Position numbers and translations under genes: made by a program | Notes under the pieces: model-generated | What the model was told of the DNA's origin: nothing | What the model saw: only the letters and a program-made list of their open reading frames with translations | The model's database searches: none | Part shown: positions 11,557 through 20,219 of the stretch, one piece after another | Layout: each line of letters opens with the position of its first letter | Numbering within the stretch: position 1 is the first letter of the stretch | Assembly: GCA_032128875.1 (NCBI GenBank) | Contig: JAVLKG010000002.1 | Location: forward strand, 992,001-1,056,000 | Source: Candidatus Melainabacteria bacterium 17Bon1m | GTDB taxonomy: Bacteria > Cyanobacteriota > Vampirovibrionia > Obscuribacterales > Obscuribacteraceae | Direction of reading: 5' to 3' | Length of the DNA: 64,000 bases

Positions 11557-14208
11557 ATGAGCCTACACTCGCTCGTCCAACTGAAGAATCAGATTGCCGA
11601 CCCGACTAAACTCAGTCGTCCTCTTCGGTATCTGTTGCTCTTCTTTGCAGTTATTGTTCCTCTTGTAATTCACTATTATCCGTATTTGTTCGGCGGGCGC
11701 TCTTTTGTGTCTTCCGATCATCATCTTTTCTTTGAACCGTTTTGCCGCTTCATGGGAGACGCGTATAGAGAAGGGCGTCTGCCTTTGTGGAACCGCTGGC
11801 TGTATTTTGGAATGCCGCAATTCGCCTTGCCGTCTCCATCATATTTGTATCCACCCACTTTGTTGTATGCGCTGTTTTCGTATAGCCAAGGACTTTCGAT
11901 ACAGCAAATTCTGCATCACAGCGTTGCTGCTATTGGTGGGTGTCTACTTGCTGAAAGCCTTGGTTTGAGCTTTGGCGCATCAGCATGTGCCGGGCTGGCT
12001 TTTGCATTTAGCGGATACATGTTTACTTTGAGCGCTAATTATTCGCTTGTTGCTGGTGTTAGCTGGCTTCCCATGGCATTGTTTGCATCGCGCAGAATAC
12101 GTTTTGCAGAAACGCTCGCGCAGCGATCGCAGTGGATAATTGTCCTTTCAGTCTGTGTTTTCCTGATGATCAGTGCCGGCCGACCTGAGGTTTTTGTGCC
12201 GGTTATGGTGATTGTTCTGGCGCACGCTCTGACGGGTATTGGACGTCATTACTTGTTGAAGTTCAAAACTAGCTGGAAGCGACAAGCGGACATTGAAACG
12301 ATCGATCCGGCAGCACAACTGCATGACGAGAGACCGTTGAAACTTTTCTTTTGCCGTTTGCTTGCCCTGGCGATTGGTGGCTGCCTTTGTATGCCGTTGC
12401 TGTTACCGGCGCTCGAATGGGCTTCTGGTTCGACTCGAGCGAAAGGACTTGATCCTAGTGAAGTAACTATCTGGAGTGCAAATTGGTACAGCTTTCTGAC
12501 AATGATTTTGGCGCAACCGTTTGGCGATTTGCAGACAATCGGTAACGCCTTCTTGCCTGTCGCAGCTGACCGCGCTGCCTACATGCCTTTCCTGCCATCT
12601 GCTTATGTTGGCGCGGCCGTTTTTACTTTAGCAATACTTGGTCTCTTTCATACTCGCTCACCATGGCTGGTGCCTGTTGGTTTGTTGCTGGTGGCAGGAA
12701 CTACATTCTCGCTGGGGCGTTACACGCCAATTTTGCCGTGGTTGATTCATACCTTCCCATCACTGGCTGTTTTTCGCTATCCGGTTAAGCTGCTTATCCT
12801 GCCGATTATGGCGCTGTGTCTGCTTGCCGCTTTTGGGATTCAAGCTGCTAAAGACAATCGCATCGGCTACAAAGCGCTGCAAAAAATGGCGCTATTTTGG
12901 ATTGTGGTGATGCTGGGAGGCATTCTATCTGTCTTTCTAGGAAGGTATTGGCTCACCCTACAATCCGCAAAACTCGGCATCAATTCTGAGATTGCAATTG
13001 CTATTGGCACGGCGGTCTTTCACAGCGGTGCAATTGGTCTGACAATGGTGTCAATTTGCATTTTGCGCTACAAAAATCTCTTAGGCCATTTTGGTTTTAT
13101 TCTCTTTACCGGCTTGCTTCTAACGATGGACTTGTTTGGGACATCTATTCGTTTTCCCGCATTGTCAGCGCCTTCAAGCTTTTACAGTGATAAGCCCATT
13201 GTTGTAAAAATGCTGGAGAAACAAGTTGGCGAGTCCGCGATTTCAAAAACGCGAGTCTTGAATATTTACTACGATCCGCTGGCAGCTCCTGCCTCTACCT
13301 TCCAGGGAGAGCCCAGGGAGCGGACTCTTAAATACTACAGATACTGCCGTGATTTGCTTGTTTGCAATAGCAATATGGACTACGGTGTGCAGCAGGCTTA
13401 CGGATACGAAGGAACATTGTCTGCAAAATACAGGCATCTTGCTCTCAGTATCATCAATGATATAAGAAACGCCAGCGCCGCCGAAGAAAACGAAAAGGAT
13501 GCGAAGGTCGGCAGCGACAGTGTTTTCGATGAGCGCATGCGCAGGTTTGCAGACGCCGCAGGTCTTCAGTTTGTCACCTGTCAGCTTCGACGTGATGGGC
13601 AGAAACAACCGGATCTTTCTTTTGACGATTTCGAGATTGTAGAAGATATCGATTCGAAAAACATTCGACTATACAAAGTGAGACGCCCGAAAGCGAGAGT
13701 TGAACTCACTGAGCATTGGACATGGGTTGACACTACTGAACAAGCATTTCAAATTTTGCAGGTGGAGAAGGCTAAAGATAATGGATTGTCCTTGATGCCG
13801 CTTATTGAGAAACGAAAGGACGAGAACAAGTCATATCCTCTGGGTTTTGTCAGCGAGTGTACACCCAGCAAAGCCACATGTGAAATATTGTGCGACAAGC
13901 CTGAGCATGTCACTGTCTCTGTCAATGTGCCCCGTCCTTGTATGTTGATTTTGCGAGATCAGTTTTATCCTGGATGGAAGGCGCTCCTTGATTCAGTATC
14001 AGTGCCCATCTATCGAGCTAATGGATTTACAAGGGCGGTGTATGTACCGGCTGGTGCTCATGCCATCGAGTTTAATTACAAACCTGATAGCTTGAAATAT
14101 GGCGTGCGTATCGCCCTTGTTGCTCTTGCAGCTTTAGCTGTGCTTGCTTTTTTAGCTTTTGCACCTGGTGTCTGGCGTTTTGTGAAATGGACGGCCGGAC
14201 AAAACTGA
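11557..14208 (+). CDS. YfhO-family membrane protein (GT-C-like glycosyltransferase)
   Basis: PLWNRW...GMP N-terminal motif, multiple TMs, C-terminal DQFYPGWKA...ANGFTRAVYVPAGAHAIEFNY. Confidence 0.85.
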   Translation: MSLHSLVQLKNQIADPTKLSRPLRYLLLFFAVIVPLVIHYYPYLFGGRSFVSSDHHLFFEPFCRFMGDAYREGRLPLWNRWLYFGMPQFALPSPSYLYPPTLLYALFSYSQGLSIQQILHHSVAAIGGCLLAESLGLSFGASACAGLAFAFSGYMFTLSANYSLVAGVSWLPMALFASRRIRFAETLAQRSQWIIVLSVCVFLMISAGRPEVFVPVMVIVLAHALTGIGRHYLLKFKTSWKRQADIETIDPAAQLHDERPLKLFFCRLLALAIGGCLCMPLLLPALEWASGSTRAKGLDPSEVTIWSANWYSFLTMILAQPFGDLQTIGNAFLPVAADRAAYMPFLPSAYVGAAVFTLAILGLFHTRSPWLVPVGLLLVAGTTFSLGRYTPILPWLIHTFPSLAVFRYPVKLLILPIMALCLLAAFGIQAAKDNRIGYKALQKMALFWIVVMLGGILSVFLGRYWLTLQSAKLGINSEIAIAIGTAVFHSGAIGLTMVSICILRYKNLLGHFGFILFTGLLLTMDLFGTSIRFPALSAPSSFYSDKPIVVKMLEKQVGESAISKTRVLNIYYDPLAAPASTFQGEPRERTLKYYRYCRDLLVCNSNMDYGVQQAYGYEGTLSAKYRHLALSIINDIRNASAAEENEKDAKVGSDSVFDERMRRFADAAGLQFVTCQLRRDGQKQPDLSFDDFEIVEDIDSKNIRLYKVRRPKARVELTEHWTWVDTTEQAFQILQVEKAKDNGLSLMPLIEKRKDENKSYPLGFVSECTPSKATCEILCDKPEHVTVSVNVPRPCMLILRDQFYPGWKALLDSVSVPIYRANGFTRAVYVPAGAHAIEFNYKPDSLKYGVRIALVALAALAVLAFLAFAPGVWRFVKWTAGQN

Positions 14209-15324: not shown

Positions 15325-16539
15325 ATGAATCTATTGCTGTATCGGTATCGTGAGGCACGGCCATGTGTGCAAGTGCCGGAGTTAAAACTCGTGATTCAGA
15401 GCTCCGCTGACTGGTTTCAACGGTATAGATTTTGTCAACCGCTCGGACAGGGCGGCATGGGCGTGATTTATCTTGCCGAAGATAAGGCTCAGGGCAATAT
15501 TCAATGCGTCGTAAAACAGCTGATAAGTAAACCTAGCAATCCAGATGAACAATTCGAAGCAGAGCGACTATTCAAAAGAGAAGTAGAAATACTTAGGCAG
15601 CTCGATCACTCGGGTATCGTTCGTTTCTCCGATTTCCATGTTACTGATGACGGCAAATACTTCCTGGTAATGGATTATGTTCCAGGTAAAAACCTGGATA
15701 GCATCGTGCAGAATTATGGTCCATTCGGCTCCGAGGCAACCGTAGAAATTGGTATTCAGTGCTGCGAGGTTCTCGAATATCTGCATGAAAGAGATTACCC
15801 AATCATATATAGGGACCTGAAGCCGAGCAACTTGATGCTCACTCCAGAGGGGCAGATCGTATTTATAGATTTCGGCATCGCGCGCATGTTCATGCCGAAG
15901 CAAGCAGCAACACGAGTCGTTACAGCAGGCTACTCGCCGCCTGAACAATATTTCGGCCGACCAGAAACGCGAAGTGACTTGTATGCACTTGGCGCTACTC
16001 TTGGACATTTATGCACGGGTGTTCGTCCAAAACCGCTCACCGTCAGCGCTCCTGGTATTACCCATCCAGCTGTAATTCCAGAACTGGACGATCTAATTAG
16101 AAGGATGACTGCTCACAATCCGGAAGATAGACCGTTCAGTGCACGCGAAGTTCGATATGAGCTGTACAAGATCTATCACAGCATGCATCCCGATTTCGAA
16201 ATTCCAGAGGAAGCCTTGGTGCCAGTGCAAGCAGCTGTAGCGCCAAAGAAAGAGGGGCCACCAACTAATCCAAATTTGCGTTCCGGTTTGCACAGTGATT
16301 CGAGCAAGCGTCCAGCGAATTGGCTCGAGCGAGAACAGCCAAAAGAAGATGACATTCAGAAGGTAACGAGAAAAGACGCAGAAAGAGTGAATCCTGCCGA
16401 TGTGCAGCACGCACGCCGGACGAGTGAGAGATTGACTCGTCCTGATGCCAGAGACTCTAACTACAGGCGAAGAAACTCGCAATCGCAGCCAGCACCACAA
16501 ACCTTCTGGGATAAGCTCAGGCAATTTTTTAGCAAATAA
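15325..16539 (+). CDS. Hanks-type Ser/Thr protein kinase (soluble)
   Basis: LGQGGMGVIY, VVK, YRDLKPSN, DFG, GYSPPEQ, SDLYALG. Confidence 0.93.
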   Translation: MNLLLYRYREARPCVQVPELKLVIQSSADWFQRYRFCQPLGQGGMGVIYLAEDKAQGNIQCVVKQLISKPSNPDEQFEAERLFKREVEILRQLDHSGIVRFSDFHVTDDGKYFLVMDYVPGKNLDSIVQNYGPFGSEATVEIGIQCCEVLEYLHERDYPIIYRDLKPSNLMLTPEGQIVFIDFGIARMFMPKQAATRVVTAGYSPPEQYFGRPETRSDLYALGATLGHLCTGVRPKPLTVSAPGITHPAVIPELDDLIRRMTAHNPEDRPFSAREVRYELYKIYHSMHPDFEIPEEALVPVQAAVAPKKEGPPTNPNLRSGLHSDSSKRPANWLEREQPKEDDIQKVTRKDAERVNPADVQHARRTSERLTRPDARDSNYRRRNSQSQPAPQTFWDKLRQFFSK

Positions 16540-16678
16540 ACGTATTTTCGGATATTCTTGTGCCTCACCTGGAGCAAGTAAATGCAGAAGTTTAACCGTT
16601 ATCGGTCAAACTTCCAGACGTCACCGGCTGGATCTGGCTGGCATCTTGGCATTCTAGTAAATGTGCTGGCTGAGCGTA

Positions 16679-16708
16679 TTGACAATCATGCTCTGGCGGG
16701 CGTACGAT
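16679..16708 (+). promoter_or_regulatory. sigma70-type promoter of the vWA/PurA-like operon
   Basis: TTGACA (16679)-18 nt-TACGAT (16703). Confidence 0.65.
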
Positions 16709-16734
16709 AGTAAGCGTAAGAAACACAATAACTA
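16708..16734. promoter_or_regulatory. imperfect palindrome with a GT-N7-AC core, resembling an NrtR operator
   Basis: tagTAAGCGT-aagaaac-ACAATAActa immediately downstream of the -10 element. Confidence 0.55.
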
Positions 16735-16871
16735 GGTGAATCCAGAGACGTGGCCTGTACGGGATAATTTGTTGGGTTCGCAACTATCAACCTACGCTTT
16801 GCAGCTGGAAGTTTCCGCTGCGCATGGATTTGCTCAACGAAATCGAAAGAGAACGGCATCACAGGTGGTGC
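16735..16871 (+). ncRNA. candidate structured leader RNA of unknown family
   Basis: closing stem GGTGAATCCA/TGGATTTGCT, inner stems CGTGG/CTACG, GTTG/CAAC, GCAGC/GCTGC, then GCATCA/TGGTGC; folded by eye. Confidence 0.3.
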
Positions 16872-16909
16872 TGCGATCTAATGCGAGCAATTTCAAAGGA
16901 GAATGTGTC

Positions 16910-17812
16910 ATGGGTTATGCAAGATGGAATCATGATGACTGGGACGACTATGTAAGAGGCAATATTCGAAAGTCTATAGATGAGATCTTCAGCAATCGTC
17001 TTGATCCAGAGTTAGACCCTAAGAATGTCAGCTTCAGGGAGTCGCGTGATTCGGCAGAAAATCCTCTTTCGACTCCTATCATTGTTGCTGTTGACCAGAC
17101 AGGCTCGATGGGTTTTCTCGCTGAAAGTCTGATAAGAGAAGGGTTGGGAATTCTTGTCGAATCTATTTACGAGAGAAAGCCGGTTACTGATCCGCACGTC
17201 ATGTGTATGGCTCTGGGAGATGCTTGGTGCGATCGGGCTCCACTGCAGGTAACGCAGTTCGAAGCCGATATCAGAATTGCAGAGCAGCTCTCAAAGTTTT
17301 ACATCGAAGCAAACGGTGGCGGTAACAACTTCGAGAGCTATAACCTGCCATGGTACTTTGCTGCGACGCGCACCAGATGTGATGCTTGGTTGAGACGCCA
17401 AAGGAAAGGTTATCTGTTTACTGTCGGTGACGAACCACCGCCCCCCGAGCTGAAGGTCGAGCATGTCAAAACATTCCTGGGCGGTGGACTGCAGCGCGAC
17501 ACAAGCTCAAAAGAGCTGTTAAGGCTAACCTCACAGACTTGGCAGGTCATTCATATCATTACCGAAGAGGGTTCGTATTATCGCTCGCGACCTAAGCAAA
17601 CCAGCGACGCTTGGGCGAGCTTGCTCGGTAAAAGGGCGATTTCATTGAGTGATCATCGAAATCTTCCGGAGCTAATTGTTTCGATCATGCAGGTCCTGCA
17701 AGGAGAAAATCCGCAAGAGGTGGCTTACAGCTGGTCGGGAAAAACGGCTTCAGTGCTCATGAATGCGCTGAAAGGGCTGGCCGAACCATACGTTCCCTTC
17801 ATCAGCGCGTAG
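16910..17812 (+). CDS. vWA-like (MIDAS) domain protein
   Basis: PIIVAVDQTGSMG (DxTxS), GGGNNFESY, LFTVGDE; ATG preceded by an AAGGAG RBS. Confidence 0.8.
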   Translation: MGYARWNHDDWDDYVRGNIRKSIDEIFSNRLDPELDPKNVSFRESRDSAENPLSTPIIVAVDQTGSMGFLAESLIREGLGILVESIYERKPVTDPHVMCMALGDAWCDRAPLQVTQFEADIRIAEQLSKFYIEANGGGNNFESYNLPWYFAATRTRCDAWLRRQRKGYLFTVGDEPPPPELKVEHVKTFLGGGLQRDTSSKELLRLTSQTWQVIHIITEEGSYYRSRPKQTSDAWASLLGKRAISLSDHRNLPELIVSIMQVLQGENPQEVAYSWSGKTASVLMNALKGLAEPYVPFISA

Positions 17813-17838
17813 CTGTCAGCTATAAGGAGGACACCATT

Positions 17839-19035
17839 ATGAGAACTGGAATTGCTGTGATTGGAGCCAACTATGGCGACGAAGGGAAGGGATTGGTTAC
17901 TGATTTCATCACCAATCAACTGGCAGCAGAATGCTCCGTCGTTAGATTCAACGGCGGAGCGCAGGCTGGGCACACTGTCGTGACGCCGGATGGAAGGAGG
18001 CATGTTTTCAGCCATATTGGCGCTGGTTCTTTTAGTGGTTGTCCCACCTACTTATCGCAGTTCTTCGTCGTCAATCCGCGACTATTCGTAAAGGAATTGG
18101 CCGATCTCACTTGTATAGGAGTACAACCACGGGTCTTGATTGATCCAAGGTGCTTTGTCACAACTCCAATCGATGTACTTGTAAATCAGGCACTTGAGCG
18201 GAAGCGTGGAACCAAACGTCATGGAAGTTGTGGCGTCGGAATCAATGAAACTGTGACCCGTTGTTTACGGTCGACTGAATTTGCAACCCAGGCCCAGGAG
18301 CTTTTAAATCCAAGTTTGTTTGAGCGCAAACTACTGCATGTTTTTCGAAACTGGCTTCCTCAGAGGCTTGTGGAGCTAAATATCGATCTGGAAGAATCAA
18401 TAATTCAAGAGGCGTTCAAACAATCTGAGTCGATAGCTTCAAGATTTATCTGTGAATGCGAATCTCTATTGAACGCATCGCAGATCACTTTTCGAATTCC
18501 GGATACTCGCTTTGTTGTGTTCGAAGGCGCTCAGGGCTTGATGCTTGATGAAAACAGGCTGGATCAATTTCCTCACGTCACTCGCTCGAAGACCGGTCTT
18601 GAGAACATAGGTTTCTTGTTCCAAAAGTATGGTCTTGAAGAAATGCAAGTCAATTACGTCTCTCGAACATACCTGACCAAGCATGGAGCCGGTCCTTTGC
18701 CAGGCGAGTGTTCATGGCGGTTTCCGGACGCGACGAACGTTGCTAACCCATACCAGGGAACTCTTCGCTACGCGCCGCTGAATATTGATAATCTGAACTA
18801 TTCAATTGATTTGGATTTGAAACGAGGAAAGTATCTGTTTCCAAATCTCTCGGCTGGCATTGCCTTCACCTGTACAGATCAGCTTGAAATGCCGGATATG
18901 CGAAGGCTACCTCTGGCGGTAAACATGGTTAGCCGCGGTCCGAAAAGAGGTGATATCGAAGTTCTAGACGGCGCGAATTATTTAAAGAGTGCTTTAAAAC
19001 CAATTTCACGAGCAAGAGCAGTCTTACGCGCATAG
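17839..19035 (+). CDS. divergent adenylosuccinate synthetase-like (PurA-fold) protein
   Basis: GANYGDEGKG, GGAQAGHT, EGAQG, FPHVTRS, YLTKHGAGP; lacks the GATTGRxRR aspartate loop; AAGGAGG RBS. Confidence 0.85.
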   Translation: MRTGIAVIGANYGDEGKGLVTDFITNQLAAECSVVRFNGGAQAGHTVVTPDGRRHVFSHIGAGSFSGCPTYLSQFFVVNPRLFVKELADLTCIGVQPRVLIDPRCFVTTPIDVLVNQALERKRGTKRHGSCGVGINETVTRCLRSTEFATQAQELLNPSLFERKLLHVFRNWLPQRLVELNIDLEESIIQEAFKQSESIASRFICECESLLNASQITFRIPDTRFVVFEGAQGLMLDENRLDQFPHVTRSKTGLENIGFLFQKYGLEEMQVNYVSRTYLTKHGAGPLPGECSWRFPDATNVANPYQGTLRYAPLNIDNLNYSIDLDLKRGKYLFPNLSAGIAFTCTDQLEMPDMRRLPLAVNMVSRGPKRGDIEVLDGANYLKSALKPISRARAVLRA

Positions 19036-20219
19036 GTATCTTCTGCTCGGTCCAAAATGGTCGTGATTACTTCAGTATAAAACTGTGGGGGTTTGCAGTT
19101 CATCCAGAGGTAGAAAGAAAATGAACCAGGAATAGTATTGATTTCATTGAAATAGAGCACGTTGGTTCTCTTGTCCAGCATGAAATCGATTCTGGAAACA
19201 CCCGAACAATTGAGGACTTTGAAGGCTTTGACCGCATACTCACGAGCACGCTCTTTAAGCTCTTCCGGAAGGTCCGGCGGGTCTATAACGCGCGTCAATG
19301 AAGCCATACCGGCAACAGAATTGTCGCCTTTCTTGCTGCCGCCCCTCAAATATTTGTCTTCGTAAGTAAGTTCATCTCCTGAGGACGAGACAGGAATTTC
19401 GACTACCGATGCTTTTGGTTCTCCATCGTCAAGGACTGAGACATTCATTTCCATCTTGTCGTCCAAGCACGGCTCGACAATTGCACCGACGTCGTATTTC
19501 AACGCCAGGACAATTGCCGAGTTGAATTCTTCAATGTTGCGAACCTTCGCCACGCCGATGCTAGAGCCTAGGTTCAGCGGTTTTACGAATAGGGGAAAAT
19601 TTTCCAAACCTGGATGTTGCAATACCTGATCGCGCAGGAAGTCGAGGTGATTGCCATAGTCAGCTTCAATCGACTCTCGTTTTACAACCACTCCGGGTAG
19701 AACTGGAATACCATGGCTTTCAACCAATTTTTTCGCATGGTACTTACTCATCCCCAATGCTGAAGCGAGTACATTGCAGCCGGTGTACGGGACATCAGCC
19801 AGCTCCAAAAGCCCCTGTATGCAACCATCTTCGCCGTAGGTGCCGTGGAAAGCAGGCAAGAAAATATCCACGTGAATAACGGATTCGGATGTTTTGCTAA
19901 GCATCGAATACGGTGCCTTGCCCGAAGATTTTGGACGCCGGATGGTTAGACCCTTAATATTTGGCTCTGGCAAAAGCGTCACTTCATCAACGCTTCCGAG
20001 TGATCCAGGCATGCGTCGGTAAAAACTTTTGTCGTACAAAGCATCACCGCTGTACCACTTGCCTTGTGGAGAAATATAAACAGGGATCGGTTTGTACTTC
20101 ACCGTGTCCATCGCTTTGATAAGCTGCAAGCCGGTGATAATCGAGATCTCGTGCTCAACTGAGCGCCCACCAAAGAGCACCGCCACTGCTTTTCTTTTCT
20201 TGTCACCGTTGGTGTTCAT
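18978..20219 (-). CDS. ddl: D-alanine--D-alanine ligase
   Basis: FGGRSVEHEIS, HGTYGEDGCIQG, VKPLNLGSSIG, YEDKY, NEINTIPG. Confidence 0.93.
   Translation of the reverse strand: MNTNGDKKRKAVAVLFGGRSVEHEISIITGLQLIKAMDTVKYKPIPVYISPQGKWYSGDALYDKSFYRRMPGSLGSVDEVTLLPEPNIKGLTIRRPKSSGKAPYSMLSKTSESVIHVDIFLPAFHGTYGEDGCIQGLLELADVPYTGCNVLASALGMSKYHAKKLVESHGIPVLPGVVVKRESIEADYGNHLDFLRDQVLQHPGLENFPLFVKPLNLGSSIGVAKVRNIEEFNSAIVLALKYDVGAIVEPCLDDKMEMNVSVLDDGEPKASVVEIPVSSSGDELTYEDKYLRGGSKKGDNSVAGMASLTRVIDPPDLPEELKERAREYAVKAFKVLNCSGVSRIDFMLDKRTNVLYFNEINTIPGSFSFYLWMNCKPPQFYTEVITTILDRAEDTYARKTALAREIGFKALFK

Follow-up and report, generated by a model that had tools for sequence, protein, structure and literature searches.

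Gene organization of the operon

We analysed a 64,000-nt stretch of DNA from Candidatus Melainabacteria bacterium 17Bon1m (GenBank assembly GCA_032128875.1, contig JAVLKG010000002.1, positions 992,001 to 1,056,000 of the forward strand), referred to below as the window, whose own numbering is used throughout. At its centre of interest is a two-gene operon that encodes a protein with a von Willebrand factor A (vWA) fold, P0001, and a divergent member of the adenylosuccinate synthetase (PurA) family, P0002. We propose that the two form a heteromeric ligase driven by a nucleoside triphosphate (NTP), carried as a module by phages and bacteria. The two genes are:

16910..17812, + strand: gene of the partner protein P0001, vWA type with a putative metal ion-dependent adhesion site (MIDAS); 300 aa, Met-Gly N-terminus
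17839..19035, + strand: gene of P0002, a PurA-fold, putatively NTP-dependent ligase paralogue with a rebuilt aspartate loop; 398 aa

An initial annotation, made from the sequence alone, had described two co-oriented genes 26 nt apart, each with a ribosome-binding site, and this description holds. The vWA open reading frame ends at 17812 and the PurA-like frame opens after a 26-nt gap on the same strand. In a mechanical list of open reading frames the vWA frame begins at a GTG at 16736; the conserved start, with AAAGGAG just 5′ of it, is the downstream ATG at 16910. The PurA-like gene has AAGGAGG 8 nt 5′ of its ATG.

A PurA-fold enzyme with a rebuilt aspartate loop

The PurA-like motifs quoted in the initial annotation are all present in the translation of P0002 and align as it described: GDEGKG (13–18), QAGHT (42–46), HGSCGVGI (128–135), FEGAQG (228–233), TKHG (280–283), DATNVANPYQGTLRY (297–311) and TCTD (344–347). 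They pair with NAGHT, IGTTxxGIG, EGAQG and TRVG of PurA in HMMER alignments with the E. coli and Yersinia enzymes and in a BLASTP alignment with the PurA of the same genome, to which P0002 is 28% identical over 287 residues. Alignment to PurA by sequence fails in the C-terminal third, and the PF00709 match (149.3 bits) extends over profile positions 1–277 of 416 only. Scores on the equivalog models lie far below their cut-offs, at 121.7 bits on NF002223 (PurA, cut-off 402), 109.5 bits on TIGR00184 (PurA, cut-off 395.55) and 44.7 bits on NF038379 (PurZ, cut-off 300); the best family for P0002 is phrog_1211 (E = 2.6e-56). The fold is nevertheless that of PurA along the whole chain. The AlphaFold2 model of P0002, with a predicted local distance difference test score (pLDDT) of 90.3, superposes over its full length on E. 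coli PurA (1cg3; Foldseek E = 9.6e-21, TMq 0.72), and ranks 1–42 of the Foldseek matches shown all belong to the PurA or PurZ family, with PurZ0 and PurZ lower, at ranks 27–42.

The catalytic core is invariant across the family. The PurA equivalents of Asp14, His45 and Gln232 deprotonate and phosphorylate the 6-oxo group of inosine monophosphate (IMP), and the equivalent of Thr248 contacts the IMP phosphate. G13, D14, E15, G16, K17, G18, Q42, H45, E229, Q232, G233 and T248 are invariant in 58 of 58 sequences (by alignment, Q42, H45 and T248 correspond to N38, H41 and T239 of the E. coli enzyme). A second set of invariant residues in the same 58 sequences is new in comparison with PurA: S130, H282, T299, N300, Q306 and R310, of which H282 takes the place of the Val of TRVG. 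In PurA the L-aspartate loop carries the motif GxTTGRxRR, which is not seen in our alignments since that region fails to align. In its place the relatives of P0002 share a rebuilt loop (D297, T299, N300, N303, Q306 and R310) with the pattern D-A-T-N-x2-N-x2-Q-x3-R and the family consensus DxTNVPNxFQGxLRY, without counterparts of the arginines of GxTTGRxRR. From these patterns of conservation we conclude that the machinery for phosphotransfer and ring-oxo activation appears to be under selection, and that the second substrate would not be aspartate.

A vWA protein with a MIDAS-like site and a conserved Met-Gly start

P0001 has no match in Pfam (the VWA model included), NCBIfam or the sequences of the Protein Data Bank (PDB), and was placed by its structure. 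It matches phrog_2971, a family whose function is listed as unknown (E = 4.3e-42), and an ESM Atlas search returned unnamed clusters only, with vWA families at 0.83. In VIA-align comparisons with the AlphaFold2 model (pLDDT 85.9; 62–68 in residues 1–30) all 50 rows shown are vWA domains, at Z scores of 14.3–11.7, the best at Z 14.3 with a root-mean-square deviation of 2.8 over 171 aligned residues. Foldseek likewise finds vWA domains of integrins (I and beta-I), Ku80 and TFIIH (E about 2e-5), and the vWA domains of NorD (in the NorQ-NorD complex, rank 47) and BchD are among the structural matches. Among 72 aligned homologues the MIDAS-like residues D62-x-T64-G65-S66 are invariant or nearly so, and G173-D174 is invariant. 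A full MIDAS consists of DxSxS with Thr and Asp ligands further downstream, and G173-D174 may provide the last Asp. These residues are consistent with an intact-looking MIDAS metal site.

The start of the protein is strikingly conserved. Met-Gly occupies the start column in 72 of 72 aligned homologues and in 143 of 150 cluster representatives of the family, within the N-terminal motif M-G-x-[GS]-x-[WYF]-x3-D-[WYF]. Relatives are also encoded on at least 553 stretches of viral contigs, of which 80 were retained for all viral-locus counts given here; the start is Met-Gly in 76 of these 80 loci, and TTG or GTG followed by Gly in 3 more. A profile search of cluster representatives at 50% identity returned 2299 at E ≤ 1e-3, 1734 at E ≤ 1e-10 and 892 at E ≤ 1e-30. 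Three vWA homologues (P0196, L030:3354-4961 and L034:4457-5980) carry a U-box at the C-terminus (PF04564, at best 84.6 bits); domains of this E3-ligase type are seldom seen in bacteria. The U-box carriers come from two loci in gammaproteobacterial metagenome-assembled genomes and one database protein.

The gene pair is conserved in bacteria and phages

The initial annotation would have been weakened had the vWA gene proved a chance neighbour; its linkage to the PurA-like gene is conserved in bacteria and in viruses. Among 80 genome loci retrieved through the PurA-like gene, 76 show a vWA gene immediately 5′ of it on the same strand, and the remaining 4 are interrupted by contig ends, one of them with a 75-aa stub. 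Represented among these loci are Obscuribacterales/Melainabacteria, Alpha-, Beta- and Gammaproteobacteria, Actinomycetota, Lachnospiraceae and other Clostridia, Treponema and Bacteroidales. The same order occurs in all three of the named phages examined, Vibrio phage Va1, Rhizobium phage RHph_TM21B and Mycobacterium phage ParkTD, whose vWA proteins are 49%, 43% and 32% identical to P0001, respectively. On viral contigs a PurA-like gene follows on the same strand in 77 of 80 cases, within 400 nt in 60 and after 0.4–2.9 kb of inserted genes in 17; none was found within the retrieved DNA of the other 3. Pairwise identities of the two proteins are correlated across 51 loci (Spearman 0.75, for pairs that are non-independent). 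Two long matches, P0273 and P0274, were considered as vWA/PurA-like fusions of the Rosetta-stone kind and rejected, because their low-complexity linkers resemble read-through or frameshifted gene calls.

Paralogy and distribution

A separate canonical purA is present in the genome, as the initial annotation had asked to be checked, at G000:C1:1079625-1080884 (581.5 bits), on a different contig from the module (genome size 7.55 Mb, 93% complete). Both copies were also found in all five of the other module-bearing genomes searched, with PurA at 543–598 bits and the PurA-like protein at 104–152 bits. The housekeeping PurA of this genome and that of a relative (L001 and L167) have the P-loop GDEGKA; the accessory paralogue retains the classical GDEGKG. 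A rapidly built maximum-likelihood tree comprised 101 rows: 91 PurA-like (3 from named phages and 30 from viral contigs among them), 7 canonical PurA and 3 PurZ-type phage enzymes. Each of these groups falls on one side of a branch, with Shimodaira–Hasegawa-like approximate likelihood ratio (SH-aLRT) supports of 99, 98 and 99, respectively; several long branches are flagged in this tree and PurZ is represented by its 3 rows only. The stem of the PurA-like group is long (1.04), and phage and bacterial rows are interleaved within it. Together with the sub-cut-off scores and the conserved rebuilt loop, the canonical copy and the separate clade bear out the earlier view that P0002 is unlikely to be the housekeeping enzyme.

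The vWA gene is present in 11 of 61 related genomes, the source genome included, in 10 of 36 others of the family and in 4 of 12 others of the genus; the module is therefore accessory. It is also horizontally mobile, and common to large phages and many bacterial phyla.

The two proteins are predicted to bind each other

The proposal that the vWA protein is a binding partner of the enzyme gains support from structure prediction. Co-folding P0001 with P0002 gave values of the interface score ipSAE of 0.69, 0.68 and 0.65 (median 0.68), against 0.01, 0.00 and 0.00 for three controls. Of 80 solved complexes, 58 reach this ipSAE mark, as do 2 of 110 mismatched pairs; it is a rough guide here, because our own alignments were used. 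At least 93% of contacts were common to the runs, and the partner pLDDT was at least 78. The confident interface comprises residues 103, 153–161, 208, 211–212 and 216–220 in the helical subdomain of the enzyme, and 38–42, 153–164, 187–196 and 209–210 of the vWA protein. Neither the N-terminal tail (1–30) or MIDAS site of the vWA protein nor the catalytic residues of the enzyme are among these positions; residues not named here are uncertain rather than excluded.

Mutual information between the proteins was computed over 117 pairs (effective number of sequences (Neff) 85). The top pairs gather on A43, G230, F244–R249 and D347/Q348 of the enzyme, positions that adjoin the catalytic motifs, and one pair (vWA H185 and L210) is adjacent to the predicted interface. 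With an alignment this shallow, most of the signal is lineage structure.

Relatives often carry a third gene

The initial annotation described the system as self-contained. A two-gene operon is indeed what the window has, whereas most relatives carry a third gene 5′ of the vWA gene, for either a pseudokinase or an acidic-tailed protein. Most often its product is a protein of about 350 aa with a weak DnaJ match, homologous to ParkTD gp260, which is named 'serine/threonine kinase' (E = 8e-8). The three residues of its HPD motif are kept in 66, 63 and 65 of 67 sequences. With HPD retained, and HN and GGWW in place of HRD and DFG, the protein is therefore a J-domain pseudokinase; its gene was counted in 27 of the 80 genome loci and in 43 of the 80 viral ones. 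In its place, 18 genome loci and 9 viral loci of these same sets have a protein of about 200 aa with a long acidic C-terminal tail, which matches nothing in Pfam or PHROG. Acidic-tailed proteins (for example L051:4467-5069 and L077:4478-5107) were seen in loci of Lachnospiraceae, Bacteroidales and Treponema.

The initial annotation also suggested a survey for NrtR/NUDIX and kinase partners, and such genes do recur near the module in relatives, phages included. Clustering places an NrtR-like regulator (NUDIX + NrtR_WHD) beside the module in 30 of the 80 genome loci; phmmer gives 39–40 of 80, a figure in which Nudix-only proteins may be included. Nampt is encoded nearby in 7 of 80 viral loci and NMNAT-Nudix in 5 of 80, and Rhizobium phage RHph_TM21B has phosphoribosyltransferase-like and NMNAT/NUDIX genes 3–5 kb upstream of its module. 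Other neighbours recur in groups of viral contigs. About nine contigs (L136, L138, L139, L140, L144 and related ones) have the trio flanked by DUF2828/DUF7788, SPASM-domain (radical SAM-type) and LemA proteins, and in a second group an RlaP-type nucleotidyltransferase is found together with AAA_33-HD and PhoH-PIN proteins.

Upstream DNA and neighbouring genes

Three features lie 5′ of the operon:

16679..16708, + strand: TTGACA-18-TACGAT, putative promoter of sigma-70 type for the operon, in agreement with the consensus at 10 of 12 positions
16587..16614, strand unassigned: palindrome with 12-bp stem, after the kinase gene and before the promoter of the operon; arms 92% complementary
15325-16539, + strand: canonical Ser/Thr protein kinase gene directly upstream of the operon; PF00069, 126 bits

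The initial annotation had placed the operon behind its own promoter. Sites of the type TTGACA-18-TACGAT occur in the region at chance frequency (3 found, shuffle mean 3.6), so that the match by itself says little. Conservation is somewhat more informative: when the window is aligned to three related loci, all 3 sequences long enough to include the -35 hexamer (the window, L006 and L007) preserve it, and the 23-nt block GCGTACGATAGTAAGCGTAAGAA, which takes in the -10 hexamer, is identical in all 4, in a region where intergenic columns average 65% identity. All four loci are close relatives, and we regard this as a modest footprint of a putative promoter.

The palindrome at 16587–16614 is also present, with changes, in L006 and L007. 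A terminator scan scored it as terminator-like on the minus strand, and it is likely to be a boundary or terminator element. The 31-nt palindromic element at 16586–16616, which spans it, was found again about 150 kb away on the same DNA contig of run X1, and may be a dispersed palindromic repeat. An Rfam search of 16300–19300 at E ≤ 1 found no RNA families.

The neighbours of the operon in the window encode Pkinase, SSB, Ddl, Mur ligase and alpha/beta hydrolase proteins, the first four within 3 kb. The Ser/Thr kinase occupies the position where relatives have the J-domain pseudokinase, and was considered as its equivalent. We rejected this candidate: it has no similarity to the pseudokinase of relatives, and the conserved hairpin and the promoter stand between it and the operon. 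The kinase gene neighbours the module in the close relatives L006 and L007 as well. The window also has an 883-aa open reading frame without a Pfam match (window 11557-14208, +), and an open reading frame of equal length is found beside the NrtR locus of the genome (L181:42-2693, +).

A proposed vWA/PurA-like ligase and its alternatives

The fold, the conserved residues, the linkage, the paralogy and the distribution of the pair are established, and its binding is predicted. From these we infer a substrate class, an amine and a biological role, in the reading that we favour at a probability of roughly 60%: a heteromeric, NTP-driven vWA/PurA-like ligase that joins an oxopurine nucleotide to an amine other than aspartate, as a mobile module of phages and bacteria. 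Activation of an oxopurine-type nucleotide by the enzyme would be paid for with GTP or some other NTP, and the nucleotide would then be joined to its amine at a site where a longer, uncharged loop replaces the aspartate loop. The vWA protein would bind the helical subdomain of the enzyme as an obligatory subunit or adaptor, and the module as a whole would be additional to normal AMP synthesis. Its role may lie in nucleotide or NAD/ADP-ribose stress, or in conflict between phage and host, because relatives often link it to ADP-ribose-sensing NrtR, to NAD-salvage genes and to a J-domain pseudokinase that would recruit DnaK; of these, a tie to nucleotide or NAD/ADP-ribose stress is probable. The names given to the PurA-like enzyme in databases, whether as an enzyme of AMP synthesis or of Z-base synthesis, are almost certainly both wrong.

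Several results weigh against this reading. The oxopurine class of the nucleotide is read from the retained residues alone. Positions that pair with IMP-phosphate contacts of the E. coli enzyme are altered (N38 to Q42, T128/T129 to S130/C131), and the Lys of the guanine motif TKLD is a Cys in P0002 (TCTD; TCxD in the family); therefore neither IMP nor GTP is assured, and the nucleotide may be other than plain IMP. The co-fold score is the model's own confidence rather than a measurement. The genomic context is also poorer here than in relatives: the neighbours of the operon in the window include no NrtR, NAD genes or J-domain pseudokinase, the only NrtR of the genome is some 385 kb distant, with a hydrolase gene and TPR genes next to it, and no homologue of the pseudokinase was found in the genome with the query used. 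A GT-N7-AC palindrome of 21 bp, sought as an NrtR operator upstream of NrtR-linked modules, occurs in 1 of 27 (threshold 8 or more palindromic pairs out of 10; mean of shuffles 0.14; upstream bounds set by crude open reading frame calls), and none was found for comparison at the NrtR locus of the genome itself. Neither protein matched any family of the PADLOC-DB 2.0 defence models at E ≤ 0.1. Three RNA-library runs contain the stretch in contigs of 7–34 kb that are identical to the DNA, and are therefore uninformative on transcription.

The likeliest alternative keeps the enzyme and makes a protein the acceptor, be it the vWA protein itself, through its free N-terminal glycine, or a protein bound at the MIDAS site of the latter. 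The near-universal Met-Gly start, a low-confidence stretch (residues 1–30) that fits a flexible tail, an uncharged loop (N300, N303, Q306) suited to an acceptor without a side-chain carboxylate, the one-to-one pairing of the genes and the predicted binding would all suit such protein purinylation, as would the protein-directed nature of partners and fusions (the J domain, and the U-box on the vWA protein in P0196, L030 and L034). The predicted interface does not: it leaves out the tail, the MIDAS site and the catalytic residues, with the uncertainty noted for residues unnamed, and the tail is absent from the top 25 mutual-information pairs in that exploratory analysis. We know of no precedent for such a modification, and think this reading unlikely. 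In its most explicit form, C6 of a GTP-activated oxopurine would be joined to the vWA glycine or to a MIDAS-captured protein, yielding a protein-linked N6-substituted adenylate with which phages, together with the DnaK-recruiting pseudokinase, would rewire a host process; this we consider rather improbable.

The NrtR-like regulators beside the module, and the Nampt, NMNAT-Nudix and other NAD-type genes near its viral versions, raise a different prospect, in which the pair would rebuild or detoxify an NAD-derived nucleotide, for example by activating an ADP-ribose-type hydroxyl or oxo group and joining it to nicotinamide or ammonia. NrtR responds to ADP-ribose (PMC2330246), and such an activity would parallel the NAD+ reconstitution pathways of phages. 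Asp14, His45 and Gln232, however, are the purine-lactam machinery of PurA and unlike a ribose-activating site. NAD genes are absent nearby in 73 of 80 viral loci and in the window, the operator search was negative, and the published NARP1, NARP2 and NARP3 systems employ other enzyme families (PMC13464706). We hold both this activity and its parallel to the phage pathways to be quite unlikely.

By analogy with MoxR-like systems, P0002 could instead act as a SIMIBI-type switch, a non-catalytic, chaperone-like NTPase that remodels or loads the vWA protein. The obligate pairing and predicted binding would be expected of such a switch, and vWA proteins are often partners of NTPases, NorQ-NorD being among our structural matches. 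The invariance of residues for second-substrate chemistry (H45, Q232, T248) and of the new pocket residues H282, N300, Q306 and R310 exceeds what a switch needs, however, and makes this very unlikely. The least credible reading of all, in spite of the PF00709 match and the database names 'adenylosuccinate synthase' and '2-aminooxy adenylosuccinate synthetase', is that P0002 is another ordinary adenylosuccinate synthetase or an enzyme of the PurZ type, for 2-aminoadenine DNA. Against it stand the equivalog scores, an aspartate loop that is not conserved, the separate clade, the canonical purA elsewhere in the genome, and neighbours within 3 kb that include none of the dATPase and pyrophosphatase genes that adjoin PurZ in VP5 and Bhz9.

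The vWA/PurA-like ligase remains the reading that we carry forward. Its product, once known, would be that of a new reaction for the PurA family and would correct hundreds of annotations, and the module may bring to light a further level of conflict between phages and hosts, with purine nucleotides or nucleotides derived from NAD at stake. With about 900 clusters at 50% identity, the vWA family is found in many phyla and in tractable phages (mycobacteriophage cluster C, Vibrio and Rhizobium). We found no paper describing the pair in a search of full texts, where supplementary gene lists could include the families; a term search of PMC11662467 and of bioRxiv 10.64898/2026.05.01.722283 found nothing relevant to it.

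Comparison with known systems

The NARP systems and NrtR regulons resemble the module in that Nampt, NMNAT-Nudix and NrtR are found near some of its relatives, and in their presence in large phages. They differ in their enzyme families, and none of their genes is next to the module in the window. NARP1 consists of a PRPS-like Adps with Namat (PMC13464706; PMC13586617) and NARP3 of PnuC with NadR (PMC13464706); passages of the NrtR regulon paper mention neither a vWA nor a PurA-like gene (PMC2330246).

Pairs of an NTPase with a vWA protein offer a parallel in gene arrangement. NTPase-vWA pairs of the MoxR type include NorQ-NorD, CbbQ-CbbO and BchI-BchD, and the TerY-P triad combines a vWA protein, a Ser/Thr kinase and a PP2C phosphatase. 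Here too a MIDAS-type vWA gene lies beside the gene of a nucleotide-using partner, with binding that is predicted, and a kinase-like gene is often adjacent. The partner in the present case is a PurA-fold ligase rather than an AAA+ ATPase. No PP2C gene is among the annotated neighbours in the window, so that the locus is not a TerY-P triad, and the kinase-like partner in relatives is a J-domain pseudokinase that lacks HRD and DFG.

PurZ and PurZ0 (NF038379; 7odx, 6fko, 7vf6) are likewise phage-borne offshoots of the PurA family with altered substrate use. They retain aspartate as a substrate, unlike what is proposed here, and form a clade separate from the PurA-like rows. The PurZ loci that we retrieved adjoin a dATP triphosphohydrolase or dATP/dGTP pyrophosphohydrolase, a DNA polymerase or a primase, and have no vWA neighbour.

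PurA itself (EC 6.3.4.4; PF00709; 1ade, 1cg3, 1kjx) shares with P0002 the fold, GDEGKG, the His of AGHT, the Gln of EGAQG and the Thr equivalent to T239. By this analogy the type of reaction is probably the same, with phosphoryl activation of a ring oxo group followed by attack of an amine. Several motifs differ: the GxTTGRxRR loop has become D-A-T-N-x2-N-x2-Q-x3-R, NAGHT has become QAGHT, TT has become SC, the Val of TRVG has become His and TKLD has become TCxD. Unlike the core gene purA, the PurA-like gene is accessory and mobile, and is encoded after a vWA partner.

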